NCBI GenBank assembly: GCA_032249135.1
Contig: JAVVGL010000029.1
Coordinates: 1-23,376, forward strand
Direction: 5' to 3'
DNA from: Candidatus Calescibacterium sp.
GTDB taxonomy: Bacteria; Calescibacteriota; Calescibacteriia; Calescibacteriales; Calescibacteriaceae
Length of the DNA: 23,376 nt
The position numbers were made by a program, and so were the translations under genes. The notes beneath the pieces are model-generated. The model did no database searches. It saw only the letters and a list, made by a program, of their open reading frames with translations, and was not told the DNA's origin. This document shows, piece by piece, positions 7,317-14,017 of the stretch (its first letter is position 1; every line of letters starts with the position of its first letter).

Positions 7317-8204
7317 ATGGCAGACCTTTTTGAAACAAAAAAAGAATTATCAGGGAACTTGGAAGATATAAGGAAACTCCTTCAGAACACCTATATTATG
7401 AAAGAGCCATATAAGGGATATGACCTTGTAGTAGCTGAAATACCGGTTGATAAGCTTGAAGTAGTTGTATATCAGAGGAAACCATCAAAACCTCATGTGA
7501 AAAACCTTGCAAAATCAATCTCAACAATAGGTTTTGTTGTTCCTTTGGTCGTAGCTAAAAAACCTGATGAAGATAAATTTATAATCCTTGATGGACAACA
7601 TAGATACCTTGCATGTCTTGATTTGGGCATAAAAAAAATACCATCTGTCATAATTCCGTGGGATTATGCAACTTTGATGATAAACCTCAATATAGAGAAA
7701 CAACCAAACATAAAAGAAAAAGCGTATGTTGCTTTGAGAATTTATAATGAGCTCGTTGATATGTACCCAGATAAACCAGAAACAGATGATGAAGTTCTCC
7801 AATCTGTTGAGGAAATCCATTATGTGACTATGGGAATGGTTTATGAGCGAGAGGAAAAATTTTCAGGTTCAGCTTGGGACCCAATACTAAAAAAGACGGA
7901 TTGGCCTTTCGATATTTCCTTAAAAGAAGCAAAACCAAAAAGGGAAGAAAGAGCAAAAGTATTAGAAGAACTACACATTATAGTAAAAGAAATAGTGCAG
8001 AAACTCAAGGAGTTAGGAGTTCAGCATCCTTTTGTTTATAAAGAAGTCGTATCTCATGCAAACCCGATAAAGAGGAAAAGAGTAATTGTTGAATTTGATG
8101 AAGTTTTTTCACAAATTAGAGAGAACCTTGAAAAAATGAGAGAAAATCCAGAAGAGTTCAAAGAAGTTGTTGCTGCCCAAATTGAATCTGAATACCTTGA
8201 ATAA
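7317..8204 (+). CDS. ParB/sulfiredoxin-fold N-terminal domain protein (DGQHR-type)
   Basis: IPVDKL...YQR...HVKNLAKSI...GFVVPLVV...FIILDGQHRYLA...LGIKKIP.V...NLN matches the ParB/Srx N-terminal pattern. Confidence 0.8.
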   Translation: MADLFETKKELSGNLEDIRKLLQNTYIMKEPYKGYDLVVAEIPVDKLEVVVYQRKPSKPHVKNLAKSISTIGFVVPLVVAKKPDEDKFIILDGQHRYLACLDLGIKKIPSVIIPWDYATLMINLNIEKQPNIKEKAYVALRIYNELVDMYPDKPETDDEVLQSVEEIHYVTMGMVYEREEKFSGSAWDPILKKTDWPFDISLKEAKPKREERAKVLEELHIIVKEIVQKLKELGVQHPFVYKEVVSHANPIKRKRVIVEFDEVFSQIRENLEKMRENPEEFKEVVAAQIESEYLE

Positions 8205-10665
8205 TAGCATCTCGAATAGCATCTTTGAGAGCCTCACATTGCTCATCAAGAAGTTTTTTACCAGTAGCTCTATCTCTTATGTAGAAAATATCCGCAACCT
8301 TATCTTCACGGGTTGAGATTTTTGCAACCGAGATCTCATATCCCATAAAAGATATCGCACAAGATATATCAAAAAGAAGTCCCGGTCTATCATAGCAGTA
8401 AACTTCAACAATTGTATAATTTTGAGATGTTGTATTATCAAAGATAACTTTCACAGAATCTCTGGAATTCTTTTTAACGCTAAACTGCCATCCTCCGAAT
8501 TGAGAATTCTCTCTCTTCTTTCTGATTTGCTCAATAATCTTTTCAAGATTTCTTGTTCTGAAAATTCTAACGAAATTTTGGGCTCTAACCTTATCTTGCG
8601 GTTGAACCCAAAATACATTTATAGATAAACCCAGAACTCCCCCCTCTGAGTAAAGCGATAGTATATTGAAACCTGAAAGAAATAAAAGCCCAGCACATTC
8701 ACTTATAAGAGACCAACTATCTTTATCTATTGCTATAACTTCAATTACACCTTCTTTTCTTGTAGTATAAGTTGCAACTCCCCTACCATCCATATAAGCT
8801 TTCAGAAGAAGACAAGAATACCTGAAAAGCCTATCATAGCTGAAAAATGAAATGAATTTATCTGAAAGAGAAGATATATATGATGAAACTATCTTTTCAG
8901 GAAAAATCTGAGAAAGTTCTTCTCTTAAAATATTGGTATCTATATGCTCTTCTTCAACATACTCTAATCCTTTTCTCATCTCCTCGTCAACCTTCCCATA
9001 AATTTCACCAAGAAGATGAGCCTTCCACTGGTTCCAGTTATTAGGATTTGTTGCCAATGCATCAGCAATAGATACCAAATAAAGGGTATTGAGTGTAATA
9101 TGGTCTGGAAAAGACGAGGCTAATTTTTCTATTGTTTCCCTTTCGTGTAAATCTCTTCTTTGTGAAAAATGAGCTAAAATCAGATGATTTCTGACGATAA
9201 ACTTCAACCTATCAAGACTTTCACCAGCTAAACCTAACCTTTTTCCTATTCTTTCAGCTAATACCTCCCCTACCTCTGAATGATCTTTTTTTGAACCCTT
9301 TCCTATATCATGTAGAAAAGAAGATAACAAAGCCACATTTTTGTCTATCTCATCTAACCCTGGCATTATATCTACAAATTTTGGCTTTATTCCTGAAAGT
9401 ATTTTTTCCATCTCTCCTACGCACTTTATAAGATGGGTACCGACGGGATATATGTGAGGAGGATAAATTTGATATAAATTTGAAACTCTCCCAAACTCTG
9501 GAATAACATTTTCAAGAACTCCGAGCTCTTTCATACGCATAAGAGTTTTCTCTATTCCACCAAGATCTGTTATTATCTCAAAAAATATCTTGTTTGCCTG
9601 AACATCTTTGCTCAAATCAACATTTCTTACCTTCAATATGTAGTATGAAATTTCTGGAGATATTTCAAGGTTATTAGATTTTGCAATTTTGAATATCTCA
9701 ACAAGTCTCCAAGGTTCTTTTTTAAAAAGTTCAATATCAGCATGTAAAAACTCACCATCCGAAATATAAGGTCCAAGATAAGATATAAGTGAAGGATTTG
9801 GGGGATAAATTTTTCTTTTCACAAAGTTTTGCGATATATCTGCATAAACCTTTATTCTCTGCATAGATGATATGACTTTCGTTATAAATTCAACTACTCC
9901 GTATCTCTTTCCCGTCTTTGATTTTATGAAATTGAGTATCTCGTCAATCAAACCGAGGTAAAGTGAATTATTATTTCTTCTGGTCAGAATGTGTAAGATA
10001 AACCTTACTTCAAGAATTCTCAAAAAATCCTGTTCAATTTCTTTTAGAGACACAAGAATATCTTCTGAAACAAGATTTTGAAGAACTTTCATAAAGAAAA
10101 AATCTTCAAGTCCCCCCGGTGACTTTTTAACATCTGGTTCAACAAGATTCTGATATTTTGATATGCGTGCACTTCTATCTTGAACAAGTGTAGAAAAAAT
10201 TTTCATAGAGTGAGTATGTTTTAGTTGATTTACAAGGTACAAAAGATGGTTAAAAACTTTCTTATCTCCTGCTACATATCTTATATCAGCAAGGTATGTG
10301 AGGACTTTTTCATCTTCAAGAGCAAGATTTATCGTCTCTTCCGGAGTTCTCACAGAATATTCAGCTTTTGAAACTATGTCCCAAACATGATGAATAAAAG
10401 ATGATATTTTATTATTTTCCTTCTCAGCAACCGACTTTGATGAAGTTAATATAACAAAATCTAAATCTGAACATGGAGCCATAAGTTTTCTTCCAAAGCT
10501 TCCAAAGCCAACAAGGCAAACACCATCCACATCCCCTAAAAACCTTCTATATATCTCTAAAATCTCCTCATCGTAGATTTTTGCTATGCTTTCTGAAAGA
10601 TAAAGAATATTATCTTTGAAAATTCTTTCCTCTGCTAATGCTAAAACCTTATTTTCAAGCTTCAT
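8158..10665 (-). CDS. glnD: Bifunctional PII uridylyltransferase/uridylyl-removing enzyme
   Basis: NTase GSFGR...APCSDLD, EPDVKKSPGGLED, HD domain (HIYPVGTH, FLHDIGKG, DHSEVG, VRNHL), C-terminal ACT (TIVEVYCYDRPGLL, AKIST...VADIFY). ATG 10665 chosen; the 40 upstream codons in the track look non-coding. Confidence 0.9.
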   Translation of the reverse strand: MKLENKVLALAEERIFKDNILYLSESIAKIYDEEILEIYRRFLGDVDGVCLVGFGSFGRKLMAPCSDLDFVILTSSKSVAEKENNKISSFIHHVWDIVSKAEYSVRTPEETINLALEDEKVLTYLADIRYVAGDKKVFNHLLYLVNQLKHTHSMKIFSTLVQDRSARISKYQNLVEPDVKKSPGGLEDFFFMKVLQNLVSEDILVSLKEIEQDFLRILEVRFILHILTRRNNNSLYLGLIDEILNFIKSKTGKRYGVVEFITKVISSMQRIKVYADISQNFVKRKIYPPNPSLISYLGPYISDGEFLHADIELFKKEPWRLVEIFKIAKSNNLEISPEISYYILKVRNVDLSKDVQANKIFFEIITDLGGIEKTLMRMKELGVLENVIPEFGRVSNLYQIYPPHIYPVGTHLIKCVGEMEKILSGIKPKFVDIMPGLDEIDKNVALLSSFLHDIGKGSKKDHSEVGEVLAERIGKRLGLAGESLDRLKFIVRNHLILAHFSQRRDLHERETIEKLASSFPDHITLNTLYLVSIADALATNPNNWNQWKAHLLGEIYGKVDEEMRKGLEYVEEEHIDTNILREELSQIFPEKIVSSYISSLSDKFISFFSYDRLFRYSCLLLKAYMDGRGVATYTTRKEGVIEVIAIDKDSWSLISECAGLLFLSGFNILSLYSEGGVLGLSINVFWVQPQDKVRAQNFVRIFRTRNLEKIIEQIRKKRENSQFGGWQFSVKKNSRDSVKVIFDNTTSQNYTIVEVYCYDRPGLLFDISCAISFMGYEISVAKISTREDKVADIFYIRDRATGKKLLDEQCEALKDAIRDAIIQGIQIQFGQQQLL

Positions 10666-10865
10666 ATAAATGAAATTATAGTATCCTACCGAATTTTTAT
10701 AAAAAAGTATAAATTGATATATGCACTTGAAAAATCTTCTGATTTTCCTTTGAAATGTCAGGAAACATCCCCCATAACCAAACAAAACAAAAAAGTAAAA
10801 TATAAGTTATGACAACTTTATTTTGTACCAATACGCATACATAAAATGCAAACTGAAAATTTAAG

Positions 10866-11777
10866 ATGAAAAAAATAAGAAAAAAAACAACAAAGAAAAA
10901 GAAAAGAAAAAGAAGAAAAAGAAAGCAAATACAAAAAAGAACTCAAAAGGTTTGATCTTGTCTTAAAAGAAATCTTCTCACGAGCAGCAAAGAAAATTAT
11001 CTCCATAGCAACTGGTGAAAAAATAGAGGAAAAACTTGAAGATATAAATCAGGAGGTAAAGCTCCTCAAATCTCTCAGACCTGATATGCTCTTTAAAGCC
11101 GGTGATAAAATTTTCCATATTGAAATCCAAGCTCAACAAGATAAGACCTTACCTAAAAGAATGTTGCTTTATTCTGTTGGGATTGAAGAAAAATTTGGTA
11201 AAGAACCTGTGCAGATTGTTTTATTTGTGGGAAAAGGGAATCCCCCTCCTTCTTATTTCAAGTCAGAATTCAAAACTCTCAAATTCAGAGTTGTTGATTG
11301 GAAGAAAATAGACCCTGATGAGTTTTTAAGAAGTGATAAGCCAGAAGAAGTTGTATTAGGAGTTTTAGCTGAAAAATATAGAGAAAAACCAGAGGTATTC
11401 AAAAAAGTGATAAGAAAGATTTCAAAAATTATCAAAAACAAAAAACAACTTTTAAAATATATGGAAGATATAAGTTTTTTAGGTAGTTTATTTGATGTTG
11501 AGATAAAATTAGAGCCTATGCCAATACAAATAGATATAAGAAAAACTCTTTTTTATAAATGGGGAGGGAAAGAAGGTGAAAAAGGGGGAAACAAGAAGGA
11601 TTGAAAGAAGCGATTTTATTGGATGTTCAAATCAAGTTTGGTAAATCAAAGGTAAAAGAGATAAAAACTATTTTGGAAAAAGTAGATGATGTAAATCACC
11701 TAAAAAAAATAAAGAGAAAAATAATAGAAGCAAAAACATGGGATGATTTTGTCAAAGTTTTCAGAAACCATAAGTGA
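10866..11777 (+). pseudogene. Rpn/YhgA-like PD-(D/E)XK nuclease with two frameshifts (near 10869-10887 and near 11579-11592)
   Basis: Frame 1 is open 10879-11604: FDLVLKEIF...LRPDMLFK...IFHIEIQ...RMLLY...PVQIVLFVG. ATG 10866 is in frame 3. The C-terminal tail (QEGLKEAILLDVQIKFG...WDDFVKVFRNHK) continues in frame 3 to TGA 11775-11777. Confidence 0.8.
11519..11564 (+). repeat. 46-bp perfect direct repeat, copy 1
   Basis: tgccaatacaaatagatataagaaaaactcttttttataaatgggg, identical to 11795-11840. Confidence 0.95.
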
Positions 11778-11793
11778 AATAAATTTAAAGCGC

Positions 11794-12141
11794 GTGCCAA
11801 TACAAATAGATATAAGAAAAACTCTTTTTTATAAATGGGGGGAAAGAGAGGGAGAAAAAAGAGGAATTGTAAAAGGTCTGAAAGAAGGAGAAAAAAGAGG
11901 TCTTGTAAAAGGTCTAAAAGAAGGTCTAAAAGAAGGTCTTAAAAAAGCAATCCTGTTGGATGTTAAGTTGAAGTTTGGTAGCCAAAAAGCAGAGCAAATC
12001 AAAAGCCTTTTAGATAAAATAAATGATATAAACCGCTTGGAAAAAATAAAAAAAGAAGTAATAAGGGCAGAAAAGTGGGATGATTCCTTCAAAGCTCTCA
12101 AAAACCTAAACTCAAAAAACAAAAATTCAAAAAATAAATAG
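11794..12141 (+). CDS. Stand-alone Rpn C-terminal module (candidate RpnS-like antitoxin or alternative tail cassette), 115 aa
   Basis: GTG 11794 aligns exactly with internal ATG 11518 of the upstream gene. PIQIDIRKTLFYKW, then nine Gxxx tetrapeptides, then a helical tail paralogous to the upstream tail. The track start at 11743 lies inside the upstream gene's tail. Confidence 0.7.
   Translation: MPIQIDIRKTLFYKWGEREGEKRGIVKGLKEGEKRGLVKGLKEGLKEGLKKAILLDVKLKFGSQKAEQIKSLLDKINDINRLEKIKKEVIRAEKWDDSFKALKNLNSKNKNSKNK
11795..11840 (+). repeat. 46-bp perfect direct repeat, copy 2
   Basis: Identical to 11519-11564, 276 bp downstream and in the same reading frame. Confidence 0.95.
11839..11946 (+). repeat. 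Nine 12-bp coding repeats (GERE GEKR GIVK GLKE GEKR GLVK GLKE GLKE GLKK)
   Basis: Includes a near-identical 36-bp duplication (11851-11886 vs 11887-11922) and tandem ggtctaaaagaa units. Confidence 0.85.
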
Positions 12142-12244
12142 TAAAACTTGAACCACAATTTTCAAACTACTTCCGGAAAGGTTTTTAAGCCACAAGAAAT
12201 CCTGAAAAATTTTCCCTGACACAAAAAAGTTGATAAGTTAAAAG

Positions 12245-12274
12245 TGAGCTGAGACCCGAAAGGGCTCAGACTTA
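12245..12274 (+). promoter_or_regulatory. GC-rich hairpin with two bulged A residues in the panB leader; candidate pan RNA motif
   Basis: TGAG-CTGAG-(A)-CCC-GAAA-GGG-CTCAG-(A)-CTTA: 12 bp including one G-U pair, GNRA loop, ending 3 nt before the panB ATG. Confidence 0.65.
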
Positions 12275-12277
12275 TAT

Positions 12278-13054
12278 ATGAAAACGGTACAAGATATAAT
12301 AAATCTCAAAGGGAAGAAAAAGATAATCTGTCTTACATCATATACTTACCTTTTCGCAAAAATAGTAGATGAGACAGGTCTTGTTGATGTAATACTTGTT
12401 GGAGACTCAATGAACGAGGTGCTTTTTGGTGAAAGAAATACAACAACTATACCTTTGGATATTATGATATGGTGTGCAAGAAGCGTAAGAAAAGCCGTAA
12501 AAAATGCAATCGTTGTTTTTGACATGCCTTTCGGAACTTTTCACACACCCGAAAAAGCTCTTGAAAGCGTAGTCAAAATAGTAAAGGAGTGCGACCCAGA
12601 TGCAGTAAAACTTGAAGGCGGAAAAAACATCGCAGAAACAATAAAAAAGATAGTAAACATGGGAATACCTGTAATGGGACATGTTGGACTCTTACCTCAA
12701 AGAGTAAGAATTACAGGATATAAAAAACAAGGAAAAACAGAACAGTCAGCAAAGGAAATTTTTGAAGATGCAAAGGCAGTTGAAGAAAGTGGAGCCTTCT
12801 CCGTTGTTCTTGAATCTGTTGAAGAGAACCTCGCCAAAAAAATCACAGAAACCCTAAAAATTCCAACAATAGGAATAGCTTCCGGTGAGTTCTGCGACGG
12901 GAAAATAGCCGTTCTTGAAGACATTTTAGGACTTACTCAACCTCCACCAAAACATATAAAACCTTACGACAATCTCGCTCAAAGAATATATGAAGCAGTC
13001 TTGAAATTTGCAAAAGATGGAATAGAAAATGAAAACAAAAACGAAAATAGATAA
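12278..13054 (+). CDS. panB: 3-methyl-2-oxobutanoate hydroxymethyltransferase
   Basis: ILVGDS, VFDMPF, AVKLEGG, PVMGHVGLLPQ, GAFSVVLE, IPTIGI motifs; first gene of a panBCD cluster. Confidence 0.96.
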   Translation: MKTVQDIINLKGKKKIICLTSYTYLFAKIVDETGLVDVILVGDSMNEVLFGERNTTTIPLDIMIWCARSVRKAVKNAIVVFDMPFGTFHTPEKALESVVKIVKECDPDAVKLEGGKNIAETIKKIVNMGIPVMGHVGLLPQRVRITGYKKQGKTEQSAKEIFEDAKAVEESGAFSVVLESVEENLAKKITETLKIPTIGIASGEFCDGKIAVLEDILGLTQPPPKHIKPYDNLAQRIYEAVLKFAKDGIENENKNENR

Positions 13055-13096
13055 TAGCAAAAGACCAAAAAAATAAAATAAAAACAGCTTCAGAAA

Positions 13097-14017
13097 ATGG
13101 AAGTTATAAGAAAAATAAGTTTGATGCAAAAGAAAATGGAGGATTTGAGGAGAAAAGGAAAAAAGATAGGTTTCGTTCCAACTATGGGATACTTGCACGA
13201 CGGACATCTGAAACTTGTGAGAGAAGCTAAAAGATTCTCAGATGTTGTAGTCGTAAGCATATTCGTAAATCCTATTCAGTTTGCAAAAGGAGAAGATTAC
13301 GAAAGCTATCCACGAGATGAAAAAAGAGATTTGGAAATGCTGAAAAAAGAAAAAGTAAATTTCGTTTTTATTCCAGATGTCAAGGAAATGTACAAAGAAG
13401 ATTTCAAAACATATGTAGAAGTTATGGAATTCCAAGATGAACTTTGCGGAAAATTCAGACCTGGACACTTCAGAGGAGTTGCCACTGTTGTCGCAAAACT
13501 TTTCAACATAGTAAAACCACATATAGCCTTCTTTGGTCTCAAAGACTACCAGCAATATGTAATCTTGAAAAAAATGGTAGAAGACCTAAATTTTGACATC
13601 AAAATAAAACCCGTTGAAACCGTAAGAGATAAAGACGGAGTTGCCTTGTCTTCAAGGAACACTTATCTTTCTGAAGATGAAAGAAAATTAGCCACTTTAA
13701 TTCCAAGGTCTTTAATTTTAGCAAAAGATATGATACTCGGTGGAGAAGAAGATGCAGAGAAAATAAAAAACGCTGCAAAAGATTTCTTGAAATCACAAGG
13801 TATAACGAATATAGATTATTTTGAAATAGCAGATCCAGACACTTTACATCCTATAAAAAAAATAGATAGAAATAGAAAAAATTGCCTTATTGCTGTCGCG
13901 GTGAGAATAGGAAAAGCAAGATTGATAGATAATATAGTTATAAGGAACGGTAAAATTTTTAACCTTCCAAAAATAAAAGAAGAAAAAGAAAAGAAAAATA
14001 AAAAAGATTTGAATTAA
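13097..14017 (+). CDS. panC: Pantoate--beta-alanine ligase
   Basis: GFVPTMGYLHDGH, SIFVNPIQF, RPGHFRGVATVV.KLFN, FGLKDYQQ, DGVALSSRN, ARLIDN. Confidence 0.98.
   Translation: MEVIRKISLMQKKMEDLRRKGKKIGFVPTMGYLHDGHLKLVREAKRFSDVVVVSIFVNPIQFAKGEDYESYPRDEKRDLEMLKKEKVNFVFIPDVKEMYKEDFKTYVEVMEFQDELCGKFRPGHFRGVATVVAKLFNIVKPHIAFFGLKDYQQYVILKKMVEDLNFDIKIKPVETVRDKDGVALSSRNTYLSEDERKLATLIPRSLILAKDMILGGEEDAEKIKNAAKDFLKSQGITNIDYFEIADPDTLHPIKKIDRNRKNCLIAVAVRIGKARLIDNIVIRNGKIFNLPKIKEEKEKKNKKDLN

Follow-up and report, generated by a model that had tools for sequence, protein, structure and literature searches.

Probable exchange of C-terminal tails between paralogues at an Rpn-like nuclease locus of Candidatus Calescibacterium sp.

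A 23,376-nt stretch of contig JAVVGL010000029.1 (GCA_032249135.1, Candidatus Calescibacterium sp.), referred to here as the window, carries within positions 10866-12141 an Rpn-like nuclease gene followed by a second copy of its C-terminal module. The two copies begin alike and end unlike, which raises the question of where each tail came from and what the second copy represents. An earlier note on this DNA had proposed a crossover point for exchanging tails, an independently translated antitoxin, or both. The features of the locus are as follows:

10866-10955, plus strand: N-terminal region with start ATG 10866 and a Lys/Arg-rich coding region, from three-frame translation and paralogue alignment.
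10877-11517, plus strand: PD-(D/E)XK nuclease domain, Rpn-like, of paralogue clade N1, with the motifs RPD and HIEIQ.
11518-11565, plus strand: head 1, the conserved Met (candidate internal start) and PIQIDIRKTLFYKWG, with the exact 46-mer at 11519-11564.
11565-11777, plus strand: putatively imported A-type module, comprising a short xxxG region, helical tail 1 and stop TGA 11775-11777; out of the nuclease frame here.
11576-11588, plus strand: 3' frameshift site GTG-A5-G5, GTGAAAAAGGGGG, just past the switch from X to A type.
11775-11794, plus strand: junction, where the tail-1 stop codon abuts head-region position 6.
11794-11841, plus strand: head 2, a GTG start and VPIQIDIRKTLFYKWG, with the exact 46-mer at 11795-11840.
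11842-11949, plus strand: cassette 2 repeat region, eight xxxG units plus LKKA; the number of units depends on the allele.
11938-12141, plus strand: helical tail 2, of the X type as in the nearest paralogues; stop TAG 12139-12141.

A direct-repeat search recovered a 92-nt repeat (11499-11590 and 11775-11866, 85% identical, spacing 276), and its core, TGCC...TGGGG, showed 46 matches and 0 mismatches between 11519-11564 and 11795-11840, in agreement with the perfect 46-bp repeat reported before. The start codons named for the two heads, ATG 11518 and GTG 11794, were likewise found. Both heads share the nuclease frame (11518-10867 = 651 and 11794-10867 = 927, each a multiple of 3), and loss of 276 nt would therefore fuse the nuclease in frame to tail 2; the predicted geometry, including removal of the 3' frameshift, was confirmed. 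From 11794 to 12141, the whole of cassette 2 reads as one open frame of 115 codons. The tails, aligned by hand at 29 of 56 aa in the earlier note, were 52.8% identical over 53 aa by tblastn, and the repeat numbers given there as 4 and 9 correspond to three xxxG units plus LKEA in the frame-corrected tail 1 and eight plus LKKA in cassette 2. The locus is flanked by glnD and panB/panC, with no recombinase gene adjacent to it. The suggestion of an antitoxin array did not hold, because just one spare cassette is present.

Apparent membership of the gene family in the Rpn nucleases rests on matches below curated cut-offs. The window copy scored 23.8 bits against TIGR01784 (curated cut-off 52.1; E 3.4e-5) and gave E 0.03 against PDDEXK_2. 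At the scan's own E-value limits, not the curated cut-off, TIGR01784 was matched by 13 of the 15 full-length family members (best E 2e-9) and PF04754 by seven of the 15 (best E 1.6e-8); the first of these members also fell below the curated cut-off. Alignment of the family profile with E. coli RpnE by hhalign gave a probability of 69% and E 4.5e-5 over 164 columns, and it paired the stretch with the catalytic motif with the corresponding part of RpnE. The PD-(D/E)XK catalytic motif (Asp, then Glu-x-Gln/Lys) was present, as RPD and HIEIQ in the window, and the catalytic residues D68, E81 and Q83 were invariant in family alignment A1. A PDB sequence search with the family profile returned nothing at E up to 1.

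About 25 Rpn-like copies with a nuclease domain were counted in the 2.1-Mb hot-spring genome, following a common plan of PD-(D/E)XK nuclease, conserved head with Met, variable xxxG four-residue repeats and small helical tail. The head Met is encoded by ATG in 34 of the 37 heads aligned. The earlier note had proposed asking whether the 46-mer stands before other tails; exact or near copies of it did so at four further places in the genome, and a control pattern gave 0 genome matches. Head cores without a mismatch were found in three of 300 between-locus pairs (median 7 mismatches) and, within loci, at three of the nine loci with two heads. The same stop/head junction was present at seven loci of the genome, and by nhmmer the second heads of C29, C5_73k, C38, C9, C4_33k, C4_101k and C49 all started at profile position 6. 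Second cassettes in paralogues were frameshifted or truncated in seven cases of nine, and the orphan cassettes C11 and C44 were open frames. When nuclease-clade labels were placed on the tail tree, 16 changes were counted, equal to the shuffled mean of 16.0, and forcing the carriers of A-type tails into one nuclease clade was rejected (p 1.9e-46). By these comparisons the nuclease and tail trees are fully decoupled within the genome, the incongruence for which a check had been proposed.

In the related genomes G001-G006, a head remnant after the C-terminus was found in one of 17 examined C-termini (L007), and two full genes stood in tandem at L019. No Rpn gene was found within 1.5 kb upstream of panB in G002-G005; the G001 contig stops 215 nt upstream of panB, in unrelated DNA. 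A search for related loci with one protein returned four loci, all on contigs titled Candidatus Calescibacterium nevadense.

The origin of the two tails was then read from their best matches and trees. Positions 10950-11549 matched clade N1 (support 100*) best, positions 11550-11790 matched A-type tails, and from 11790 onward the best matches were again of N1/X type. The closest relatives of the A-type module were the A-type tails of C9, C38, C49, C5_73k and C36; the A-type tail clade was supported at 99/96*, and the nucleases of its other members belong to other clades. Tail 2 was the sister of the orphan cassette C11 (94/84). At head 2, the query segment 11790-11849 was identical to paralogue C3_114k at 55 of 55 positions, the identity being placed from 11795 on by reading of the alignment. 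In AU tests, whose groups were named after the trees had been seen, a sister relationship of tail 1 and tail 2 was rejected (p 1.4e-5), as was placement of tail 1 with the tails of the N1 nuclease sisters (p 0.001), and placement of tail 2 with those tails was not rejected (p 0.18). The comparisons thus support a change of sequence type at about both ends of the 46-mer, and the proposed exchange of tails was borne out: the type of tail 1 is foreign to the gene, whereas cassette 2 has the type found in its nearest paralogues.

These results bear on another account of the layout, in which the gene's C-terminal module was simply duplicated in tandem on the spot and the two copies then diverged, the origin inferred for E. 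coli RpnESs and RpnCSs. Identical 46-nt heads and in-frame spacing would fit it, and in the article text of Zhong et al. (2023, PMC10400941) the E. coli downstream copies cluster with their own upstream copy, so local duplication is indicated there. Descent of the downstream copy from its own upstream copy was not found here, given the rejected sisterhood of the two tails; it is the origin that differs from the E. coli pattern, not the architecture. Tail 1 falls inside the A clade, with tails of other nuclease clades, and dS is about 1.6 for the pair of tails, whose heads are identical. We consider a plain duplication very unlikely.

Ten public metagenome contigs were fetched for the orthologous glnD-rpn-panB locus, and the cassette state was assigned in eight. 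Four carried a single cassette (L037, with an open frame of 338 aa; L039 and L040, each of 334 aa; and L042, partial), and four carried two (L041, L043, L044 and L045). In L039 and L040 the nuclease is fused to an X-type tail; the predicted fusion, nuclease in frame with a tail of cassette-2 type, exists in four metagenome contigs. In L043 both the 306-aa frame of nuclease and tail A and the frame of cassette 2 are open. In L046 an X cassette precedes a 3.2-kb insert, and L038 begins too late to reveal its state. Natural strains carry either the two-cassette or the single-cassette form at the same site. Repeat number also differs between strains at the locus: among eight alleles the X cassette had seven xxxG units in L046, eight in five two-cassette alleles and nine in L039 and L040, and in L037 it had more units than the nine-unit alleles. 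Alleles of different states differed by 4-13% in the nuclease region. Two N-terminal sequence types each occurred with both cassette states, which points to recombination between alleles or to more than one event. The allele tree had a basal polytomy, and the tree of the panB side was unsupported.

The same contigs speak to whether the arrangement could be an assembly chimera of paralogues joined at the common 46-mer, a mis-assembly that the earlier note had named as fatal to its proposal. This family is repetitive and disrupts assembly; several contigs of this genome end inside family copies, and the Logan contigs are fragmented at the locus. Against this, L041, L043, L044 and L045, four independent metagenome contigs with four different id prefixes, have the same order of parts, and in run X4 one contig reads across the joint of X head and A tail (11538-11642). 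A chimera is hardly credible.

The nuclease of the window is a pseudogene with two homopolymer frameshifts, at A8 10880-10887 and A5 11579-11583. The second is the 3' frameshift reported before, which was confirmed at 11576-11588. The first was absent from the earlier note; it places ATG 10866 in another frame than the nuclease. Allele L037 has A7 at the 5' run and one open frame of 338 aa, and in runs X1-X3 the contigs had the same length across the 5' A-run stretch. At the 3' run, an in-frame A6 allele accounted for the entire depth in run X4 (342.8 of 342.8) and for a minority in run X1 (40.2 of 169.2), where A5 also occurred; it was not seen in runs X2 and X3, and it was present in L043, L044 and L045. 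The frameshifts are real alleles, and in-frame versions exist elsewhere.

Could the locus then be built for programmed switching of tails, with homogenised heads and spare cassettes allowing the tail, and with it the antitoxin specificity, to change at high frequency and A-run frameshifts serving as on/off switches? Both states occur under one contig prefix, Ga0209669 (L037 and L043), A5 and A6 alleles coexist in run X1, the geometry is in frame, and the nine two-head loci, three of them with identical heads, would suit such a system. However, the 4-13% divergence between alleles of different states argues for old haplotypes and not for rapid flips. Each locus has one spare cassette, no recombinase is associated with the glnD and panB/panC flanks, most spare cassettes elsewhere are degenerate, and A5 and A8 runs are short for phase variation. 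The 276-bp deletion junction or circle that the earlier note had proposed to look for did not appear: no joint skipping or jumping back by 276 nt was found in the Logan contigs of four runs over 10300-12700, a null that says nothing on rare events because such contigs drop rare variants. Four joints that were listed in the Logan contigs (e.g., 11909 to 11598) carry paralogue sequence such as that of C49. Programmed switching is improbable.

The product of cassette 2 was considered from its start, its predicted structure and its pattern of change. GAGGT was enriched before crude gene starts across the genome (141 versus 21 in the control; the 16S 3' end is absent from the assembly), and it precedes the internal ATG of several first heads in paralogues. 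In clade N1 the internal ATG was not seen to have it, and no Shine-Dalgarno motif of the GAGGT type was seen by reading the sequence before the GTG of cassette 2; the pattern at internal starts is suggestive only. Promoter-like sites (9 versus 5.0 +/- 2.4 expected) and terminator-like sites (1 versus 1.0) were not above chance. The conserved Met was present in 12 of 12 rows of alignment A2, a count that is not independent because the rows were picked with a pattern beginning at Met. The four-residue repeats start 16 residues past the head Met, and those of RpnS start 8-20 residues after the Met according to the article text (PMC10400941).

An AF2 model of cassette 2 predicted a long helix (residues 11-61) and three short helices, with pLDDT 71.7. 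A parallel, in-register homodimer was predicted with a score of 0.63, compared with 0.00 for the best of three controls; of 30 proteins solved as pairs, 20 attained this mark, as did one of 23 solved as single chains. Prediction runs agreed in at least 96% of contacts with partner pLDDT of at least 80, and the predicted contacts paired each residue with its own counterpart at 16, 20, ... 44, the glycines of the repeats. This prediction may have benefited from the solved RpnA-S dimer (7TH0). A PDB sequence search with the tail profile gave chance-level matches (E 0.12 or worse), Foldseek against the PDB gave no match for the cassette 2 fold at E up to 0.001 with 7TH0 unlisted, and VIA-align wide, queried with this small helical protein, gave Z up to 7.8, all to generic or designed helical bundles, with 7TH0 again unlisted. 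In hhalign of the tail profile with E. coli YpaA only the repeats aligned (probability 7.8%), and PF14261 (DUF4351) matched neither tail 1 nor cassette 2 at E up to 1.

These data were weighed for the possibility that cassette 2 is a working, separately translated antitoxin, of the RpnSs type and analogous to orphan immunity, kept to silence an Rpn nuclease whose tail matches, be it a paralogue elsewhere or an incoming one. Cassette 2 is open in all five two-cassette alleles although the nuclease is broken in three of the four where it is visible, the orphan cassettes C11 and C44 are likewise open, and the helical fold and homodimer predicted for the product would suit an inhibitor of this kind. 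The E. coli counterpart ypaA (RpnESs) is reported as translated (PMC10400941). For cassette 2, dN/dS against related tails is 0.10-0.25, but such low values may date from when the tail was still part of a gene. The two haplotypes of cassette 2 differ by two synonymous and five non-synonymous codons, which carry little power on selection after displacement. The GTG start with no GAGGT-type motif seen upstream and the degenerate state of seven of nine second cassettes in paralogues speak against a made product. Cassette 2 differs from tail 1 in both tail type and repeat number, and none of seven counted X-type tails elsewhere in the genome has eight xxxG units (the second tail of C49 was left out); in E. 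coli Rpn proteins, a mismatch of tail type or of one repeat abolishes inhibition, as described in the text of PMC10400941. A working antitoxin is possible, and we regard it as somewhat doubtful.

The explanation we favor, with fair confidence, is that the window holds a copy, decaying in this strain, of a lineage-specific Rpn expansion into which the tail module of a paralogue was swapped, leaving an X-type spare downstream. Sequence comparison shows a 276-nt module from another paralogue lineage that is flanked on either side by the gene's own head in identical copies; the module consists of a repeat region and a tail, both of A type, together with a stop codon and the 20-nt junction. The nuclease is thereby joined to a foreign tail, and the X-type tail is left as a free-standing cassette. 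The exchange would have occurred by homologous recombination or gene conversion between paralogues, with end points in the head, and the two heads would later have been made alike, or kept alike. Parsimony points to insertion as the direction; a deletion fusing the nuclease to cassette 2 would give the same pair of alleles. The tail module may be an RpnS-like self-inhibitor that pairs through the glycine stripe of its repeat helix, by analogy with E. coli Rpn, in which case a swap would alter the choice of small protein able to silence the nuclease. In the window's strain, single-base frameshifts at two A runs have since inactivated the nuclease. Most likely cassette 2 is a leftover, although a small protein of the RpnSs kind may still be produced from it.

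Two observations sit uneasily with parts of this account. Gap repair or circle integration in one event would not suffice to leave both heads fully of the recipient type, and an extra homogenising step is therefore assumed. The open frame of cassette 2 beside mostly broken nucleases could also mean that selection keeps the cassette.

A further idea concerns the driver of the exchange. Rpn-like nucleases might diversify their own inhibitor tails by cutting at or near the conserved head of their own or a sister gene, so that a paralogue used as repair template would bring in a new tail and push the old one aside. The text of Zhong et al. (2023, PMC10400941) leaves the origin of Rpn tails and downstream small copies open and considers that the nucleases might themselves start recombination. 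We hold self-driven diversification to be unlikely here. If it occurred, the roughly 25 copies would be a lasting source of new toxin/antitoxin specificities and of orphan antitoxins, unmatched products would be silenced by homopolymer frameshifts, and the family would amount to a gene-conversion variation system for a defence toxin, with a logic comparable to antigenic variation.

Much of the layout was already known. At the E. coli loci rpnE-ypaA (RpnESs) and rpnC-rpnCSs, a duplicate of the small C-terminal RpnS module lies downstream of the Rpn gene; according to the article text (Zhong et al., 2023, PMC10400941), this duplicate can disappear through deletion or when the N-terminal domain becomes fused to it. 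As at rpnE-ypaA, the copy seen here comprises the C-terminal module alone, lies closely 3' of the nuclease gene, belongs to a repeat that begins at the start of the small protein, and differs from the first copy in repeat number (in K-12 by one extra repeat). The head is better conserved than the tail in both cases; in K-12 rpnE-ypaA the 72-nt head is 97% and the tails 84% identical, whereas the tails here are only 53% identical, with 4 versus 9 repeats. Unlike the E. coli RpnSs loci, the upstream tail here is the foreign one and the downstream tail is of the nearest paralogues' type. The present family also differs in being a distant branch below curated thresholds, in having about 25 paralogues in one small genome with nine loci bearing a second head, and in the frameshifted nuclease of the window's strain.

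Resemblance to the wider RpnL/RpnS intragenic toxin-antitoxin design (RpnA, RpnB, RpnC and RpnP2) lies in a PD-(D/E)XK nuclease followed by a C-terminal module. That module shares with RpnS a conserved Met, variable four-residue repeats and, as predicted, a small helical bundle and a repeat-helix dimer, features read here from sequence and a model, and its repeat number likewise differs between alleles. It departs from RpnL/RpnS in that PF14261 was unmatched and 7TH0 unlisted in the fold searches.

A comparable displacement occurs in Rhs and CDI toxins, where an incoming C-terminal module recombines at a conserved site just upstream of the variable part, and the old C-terminal toxin/immunity cassette is pushed downstream and persists without the main gene body. 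Unlike in those systems, the variable module here is the presumed inhibitor or dimerisation part of an intracellular nuclease; there is no delivered toxin tip with a separate immunity gene, and one spare cassette takes the place of an array. The single cassette and the lack of an adjacent recombinase also set the locus apart from silent-cassette gene conversion and shufflons.

What appears to be new is the exchange of unlike tails between paralogues together with before-and-after alleles in nature. The layout and its loss by fusion are already in print for E. coli rpnE-ypaA (Zhong et al., 2023, PMC10400941), and as a discovery of kind the finding is modest. A full-text literature search returned only that article and its commentary (PMC10400984) on Rpn tails; the supplements of PMC10400941 may hold exchanges of unlike tails.

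The locus provides a natural before-and-after pair at one chromosomal site, at which tail swapping is directly visible, the junctions can be placed near the ends of the 46-nt head and the donor type can be identified, in a genome where the tails of about 25 paralogues have been reshuffled independently of the nucleases. The Rpn L/S design and the RpnSs arrangement would also reach into an uncultured hot-spring lineage that is deep-branching. If, as in E. coli, silencing pairs are set by tail identity and repeat number, such swaps would rewire toxin-antitoxin pairs and create orphan antitoxins.

The nuclease gene lies between glnD and panB/panC, and its nuclease domain is followed by two C-terminal modules in tandem. 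The features of the locus, in window coordinates, are as follows.

8158-10785, minus strand: glnD, the gene on one side of the nuclease gene
Plus strand, read in the frame of base 10867: nuclease gene, PD-(D/E)XK-type domain with motifs RPD and HIEIQ
From ATG 11518: head 1, MPIQIDIRKTLFYKWG, directly after the nuclease domain
After head 1: short run of xxxG repeats, ending at stop 11602-11604 in the nuclease frame
11601-11777: helical tail 1, in a frame other than that of the nuclease
GTG 11794 to TAG 12141: second module (cassette 2, comprising head 2, repeats and tail 2), back in the nuclease frame
12278-14017: panB/panC

A repeat search of the window detected a 92-nt direct repeat with a spacing of 276, and its core was identical at 46 of 46 nt (11519-11564 and 11795-11840). 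Both heads were in the frame of the nuclease, while tails 1 and 2 shared 53% identity across 53 residues; tail 1 had three xxxG repeats and LKEA, and cassette 2 had eight and LKKA. All items observed in the earlier note (the repeat, its spacing, the diverged tails, the unequal repeat counts and the in-frame heads) were recovered.

The window copy matched TIGR01784 (Rpn family, E 3.4e-5) and PDDEXK_2 (E 0.03) below the curated cut-offs, and was not a strict Rpn member by model threshold. Fifteen full-length members, taken from this genome and from relatives, were compared with family models: 13 matched TIGR01784 (best E 2e-9) and seven matched PF04754 (best E 1.6e-8), the YhgA-like family to which the E. 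coli Rpn proteins belong. An alignment of the family profile to E. coli RpnE spanned 164 columns (69% probability, E 4.5e-5), and the nuclease-motif residues D, E and Q were invariant in the family alignment. In the C-terminal module the four-residue repeats varied in number and the end was helical, with Met in 12 of 12 aligned rows, which were picked by a pattern starting at Met. The family was treated as a putative distant branch of the Rpn family. The xxxG region (11842-11949) also matched FliH models, though below threshold (best E 6.6e-12 among the 15 members); FliH too has glycine-spaced helical repeats, and the match was read as repeat likeness, not homology. A search of 30 relatives found the family in all six genomes that share this genome's taxonomic family and in none of the 24 others. 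The nearest named records were contigs titled Candidatus Calescibacterium nevadense, and the runs with the locus were hot-spring and sediment metagenomes.

Orthologous sites were found through the 24-nt hairpin just upstream of panB, which retrieved 10 metagenome contigs, and the locus state was visible in eight of them. The other two were L046, given in the last row of the table, and L038, which begins too late to show it.

Table. Locus state in metagenome contigs at the glnD-rpn-panB site
Contig; state; identity; reading frame
L041; two cassettes; 99.97% to window; window's two frameshifts and a third
L043; two cassettes; 95.7% to window; open 306-residue frame, Met-nuclease-tail A; cassette 2 open
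L044; two cassettes; 97% to window; contig begins at head 1; in-frame tail A
L045; two cassettes; 94% to window; different frameshift within nuclease, tail A in frame
L037; single cassette; ~93% in nuclease region; 338 aa open, in-frame fusion of nuclease and X-type tail
L039; single cassette; ~87% in nuclease region; 334 aa open, same fusion
L040; single cassette; ~93% in nuclease region; 334 aa open, same fusion
L042; single cassette; ~93% in nuclease region; partial, same fusion
L046; X cassette, then a 3.2-kb insert

Single-cassette contigs had at least nine repeats in their X-type tail. The form predicted in the earlier note, in which a deletion between the repeats fuses the nuclease to a tail of the second type, thus exists in nature, and a contig-id prefix was common to L037 (single) and L043 (two cassettes). 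At this one locus, some strains have tail X on the nuclease and others have tail A there, with tail X as a spare; the presence of both states at one site is the decisive result. The alleles clustered together to the exclusion of the paralogues (100/99), and within this clade the window, L041 and L043 were a supported subclade (96/94) and the remaining alleles a polytomy. Since the X tail sits directly on the nuclease in the two nearest paralogues and in all single-cassette alleles, insertion of an A module would require fewer events than repeated fusion and is tentatively favoured as the direction. The N-terminal region, rich in Lys and Arg, and the adjoining upstream DNA (window 10840-10950; L037, L040, L043 and L045) occurred as two unrelated sequence types, each with both cassette states, which points to recombination between alleles or more than one event.

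The best paralogue match was scored in 60-nt windows along the locus. It was of the type of the window copy's own nuclease clade (N1) up to 11549, of A type at 11550-11790, and of N1/X type again from 11790, where 55 of 55 aligned bases (11790-11849) were identical to paralogue C3_114k; further downstream it was an X tail like that of contig C11. The foreign segment is thus about 230 nt long, roughly 11565-11794, and is bounded approximately by the two 46-mers. Its right end is a junction of the TGA stop of the tail against position 6 of the head region; this junction was common to seven loci of the genome and is thus older than this locus. Head cores were identical within three of nine two-head loci (the window, C4_101k and C49, the last apart from a 2-nt insertion), compared to a median of seven mismatches and three identical pairs out of 300 between loci, in keeping with the idea of the earlier note that the two heads of a locus are homogenised or conserved together.

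The 2.10-Mb assembly contained 33 loci with family parts. The nuclease domain was full or nearly full in 25, and 18 of these were single open frames of 292-331 residues with nuclease, head, repeats and tail. A head-profile search yielded 39 head sequences, and the genome-wide check of the 46-mer proposed in the earlier note found it, exact or with up to three mismatches, at six places versus none for a control. Several contigs end in or beside family copies (C49:3581-4312, C20:35319-35834, C47:137 and C34:332); such copies help fragment the assembly, so the number of copies counted is a minimum.

The nuclease tree (20 rows) contained six supported clades, and the window copy clustered with C3_114k and C2_103k (support 100). 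In the tail tree (32 rows), nuclease-clade labels changed 16 times compared to a shuffled mean of 16.0; tails are thus spread over nuclease clades as if at random, and the two trees, whose comparison had also been proposed, are decoupled. Tail 1 fell within the A clade (99/96) alongside tails of three other nuclease clades, and cassette 2 among X tails, as did the tails of both its nuclease sisters. AU tests, with groups named after the trees were seen, rejected a single nuclease clade of A-tail carriers (p 1.9e-46), a grouping of tail 1 with its nuclease sisters' tails (p 0.001), and tails 1 and 2 together (p 1.4e-5); cassette 2 with the sisters' tails was not rejected (p 0.18). The mosaic match types, the tail tree and the two locus states support tail exchange at the head, as the earlier note had interpreted the repeat. 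That interpretation is thus supported in part, with an antitoxin role, defence and programmed switching as hypothetical further features.

Free-standing head-plus-tail cassettes with open frames and no upstream nuclease domain were observed at C11:42035-42482 and C44:1523-1861; at C11, just the last 20 residues of such a domain are left, and this cassette is the closest relative of cassette 2. A more distant relative (L019, G006:C115:4000-8100) carries a same-strand tandem of two full-length Rpn-like genes that belong to different subtypes.

The window allele has a second, 5' break that was absent from the earlier note. ATG 10866, the sole upstream start, is out of the nuclease frame, and three-frame translation and paralogue alignment located the shift in an A-rich stretch, with an A8 run (10880-10887) in the window and L041 versus A7 in L037. 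Contigs of metagenome runs X1-X3 had the window's length across this run, the stretch being masked in that comparison. The 3' break, just within the left end of the foreign segment, is an A5 run (11579-11583) in the window and L041 versus A6 in L043, L044 and L045. The extra A was found in Logan contigs of X4 (depth 342.8/342.8) and as a minority in X1 (40.2/169.2), and was not seen in those of X2 (0/46.9) or X3 (0/330.6). These A-run variants across contigs and runs indicate that the frameshifts are genuine segregating alleles, ruling out assembly errors. The nuclease in the window's strain is a pseudogene; it was broken in three of the four two-cassette alleles showing it, with two independent histories.

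Cassette 2 was open in five of five two-cassette alleles, as would be expected if it had a separate function. An AF2 model (pLDDT 71.7) showed a long repeat-bearing helix (11-61) and three short helices, and the predicted homodimer was parallel and in register, with repeat glycines 16, 20, ... 44 facing each other. The homodimer scored 0.63 versus 0.00 for the best of three controls, at least 96% of contacts agreed between runs, and partner pLDDT was at least 80. Of proteins solved as pairs, 20 of 30 attained this mark, as did one of 23 solved as single chains; the solved RpnA-S dimer may have aided the pass. Such a glycine stripe would explain repeat-number matching between partners, as reported for E. 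coli. However, cassette 2 starts with GTG, no GAGGT-type motif was seen upstream, and its repeat number was unlike that of any X-type tail counted in the genome. Only two of the genome's nine second cassettes were open (the window and C4_101k), whereas three were frameshifted (C49, C38 and C36) and four truncated (C9, C5_73k, C4_33k and C1_65k). Its dN/dS against related tails (0.10-0.25) was similar to that of intact genes' tails among themselves (0.06-0.15), but this constraint may be older than the displacement. A separate function of cassette 2 appears rather unlikely.

Next to the locus, the stem-loop GCTGAGACCC GAAA GGGCTCAGAC (12247-12270) ends 7 nt upstream of the panB start codon. It was exact in the 10 metagenome contigs, and its pairing was kept in a genome of the same genus (G001) through two-sided changes (CTGGG...CCCAG). 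With no T run behind it, the stem-loop may act as a regulatory hairpin in the leader of panBC. The insert between the Rpn cassette and panB in L046 (500-3400) holds two RCC1-repeat protein genes with lipoprotein-like N-termini, whose relatives adjoin other Rpn paralogues of this genome (C34:1289-2521, C3:22941-23471 and C2:102031-102240). In two further genomes of the genus (L028 in G003 and L029 in G002), panB is preceded by homologues of genes on other contigs of this genome (C5:70515-71012 and C9:6360-6776), one about 2 kb from Rpn paralogue C5_73k. Rpn copies may lie at the break points of rearrangements.

According to the article of Zhong et al. (2023; PMC10400941), rpn genes produce, from an internal start, a small C-terminal protein, RpnS, that inhibits the full-length nuclease, and its specificity hinges on the four-residue repeat number. 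A second small copy follows some rpn genes (ypaA after rpnE, and also after rpnC), is translated, clusters with its own upstream copy, and can disappear through deletion or through fusion to the N-terminal domain. Beside the main text of this article, no paper on Rpn tails was found in the literature searched. In E. coli K-12, we found that rpnE-ypaA has a 72-nt repeat, 97% identical, spanning the ribosome-binding site, ATG and head; the two tails share 84% identity, and ypaA has one repeat more. The window locus has the same anatomy, and neither the arrangement nor the fusion is new relative to that article. Unlike in E. coli, the upstream tail here is foreign and the downstream tail is of the type of the nearest paralogues, tail exchange among paralogues is pervasive, and both locus states were observed at one natural site, in a deep-branching thermophile with about 25 copies.
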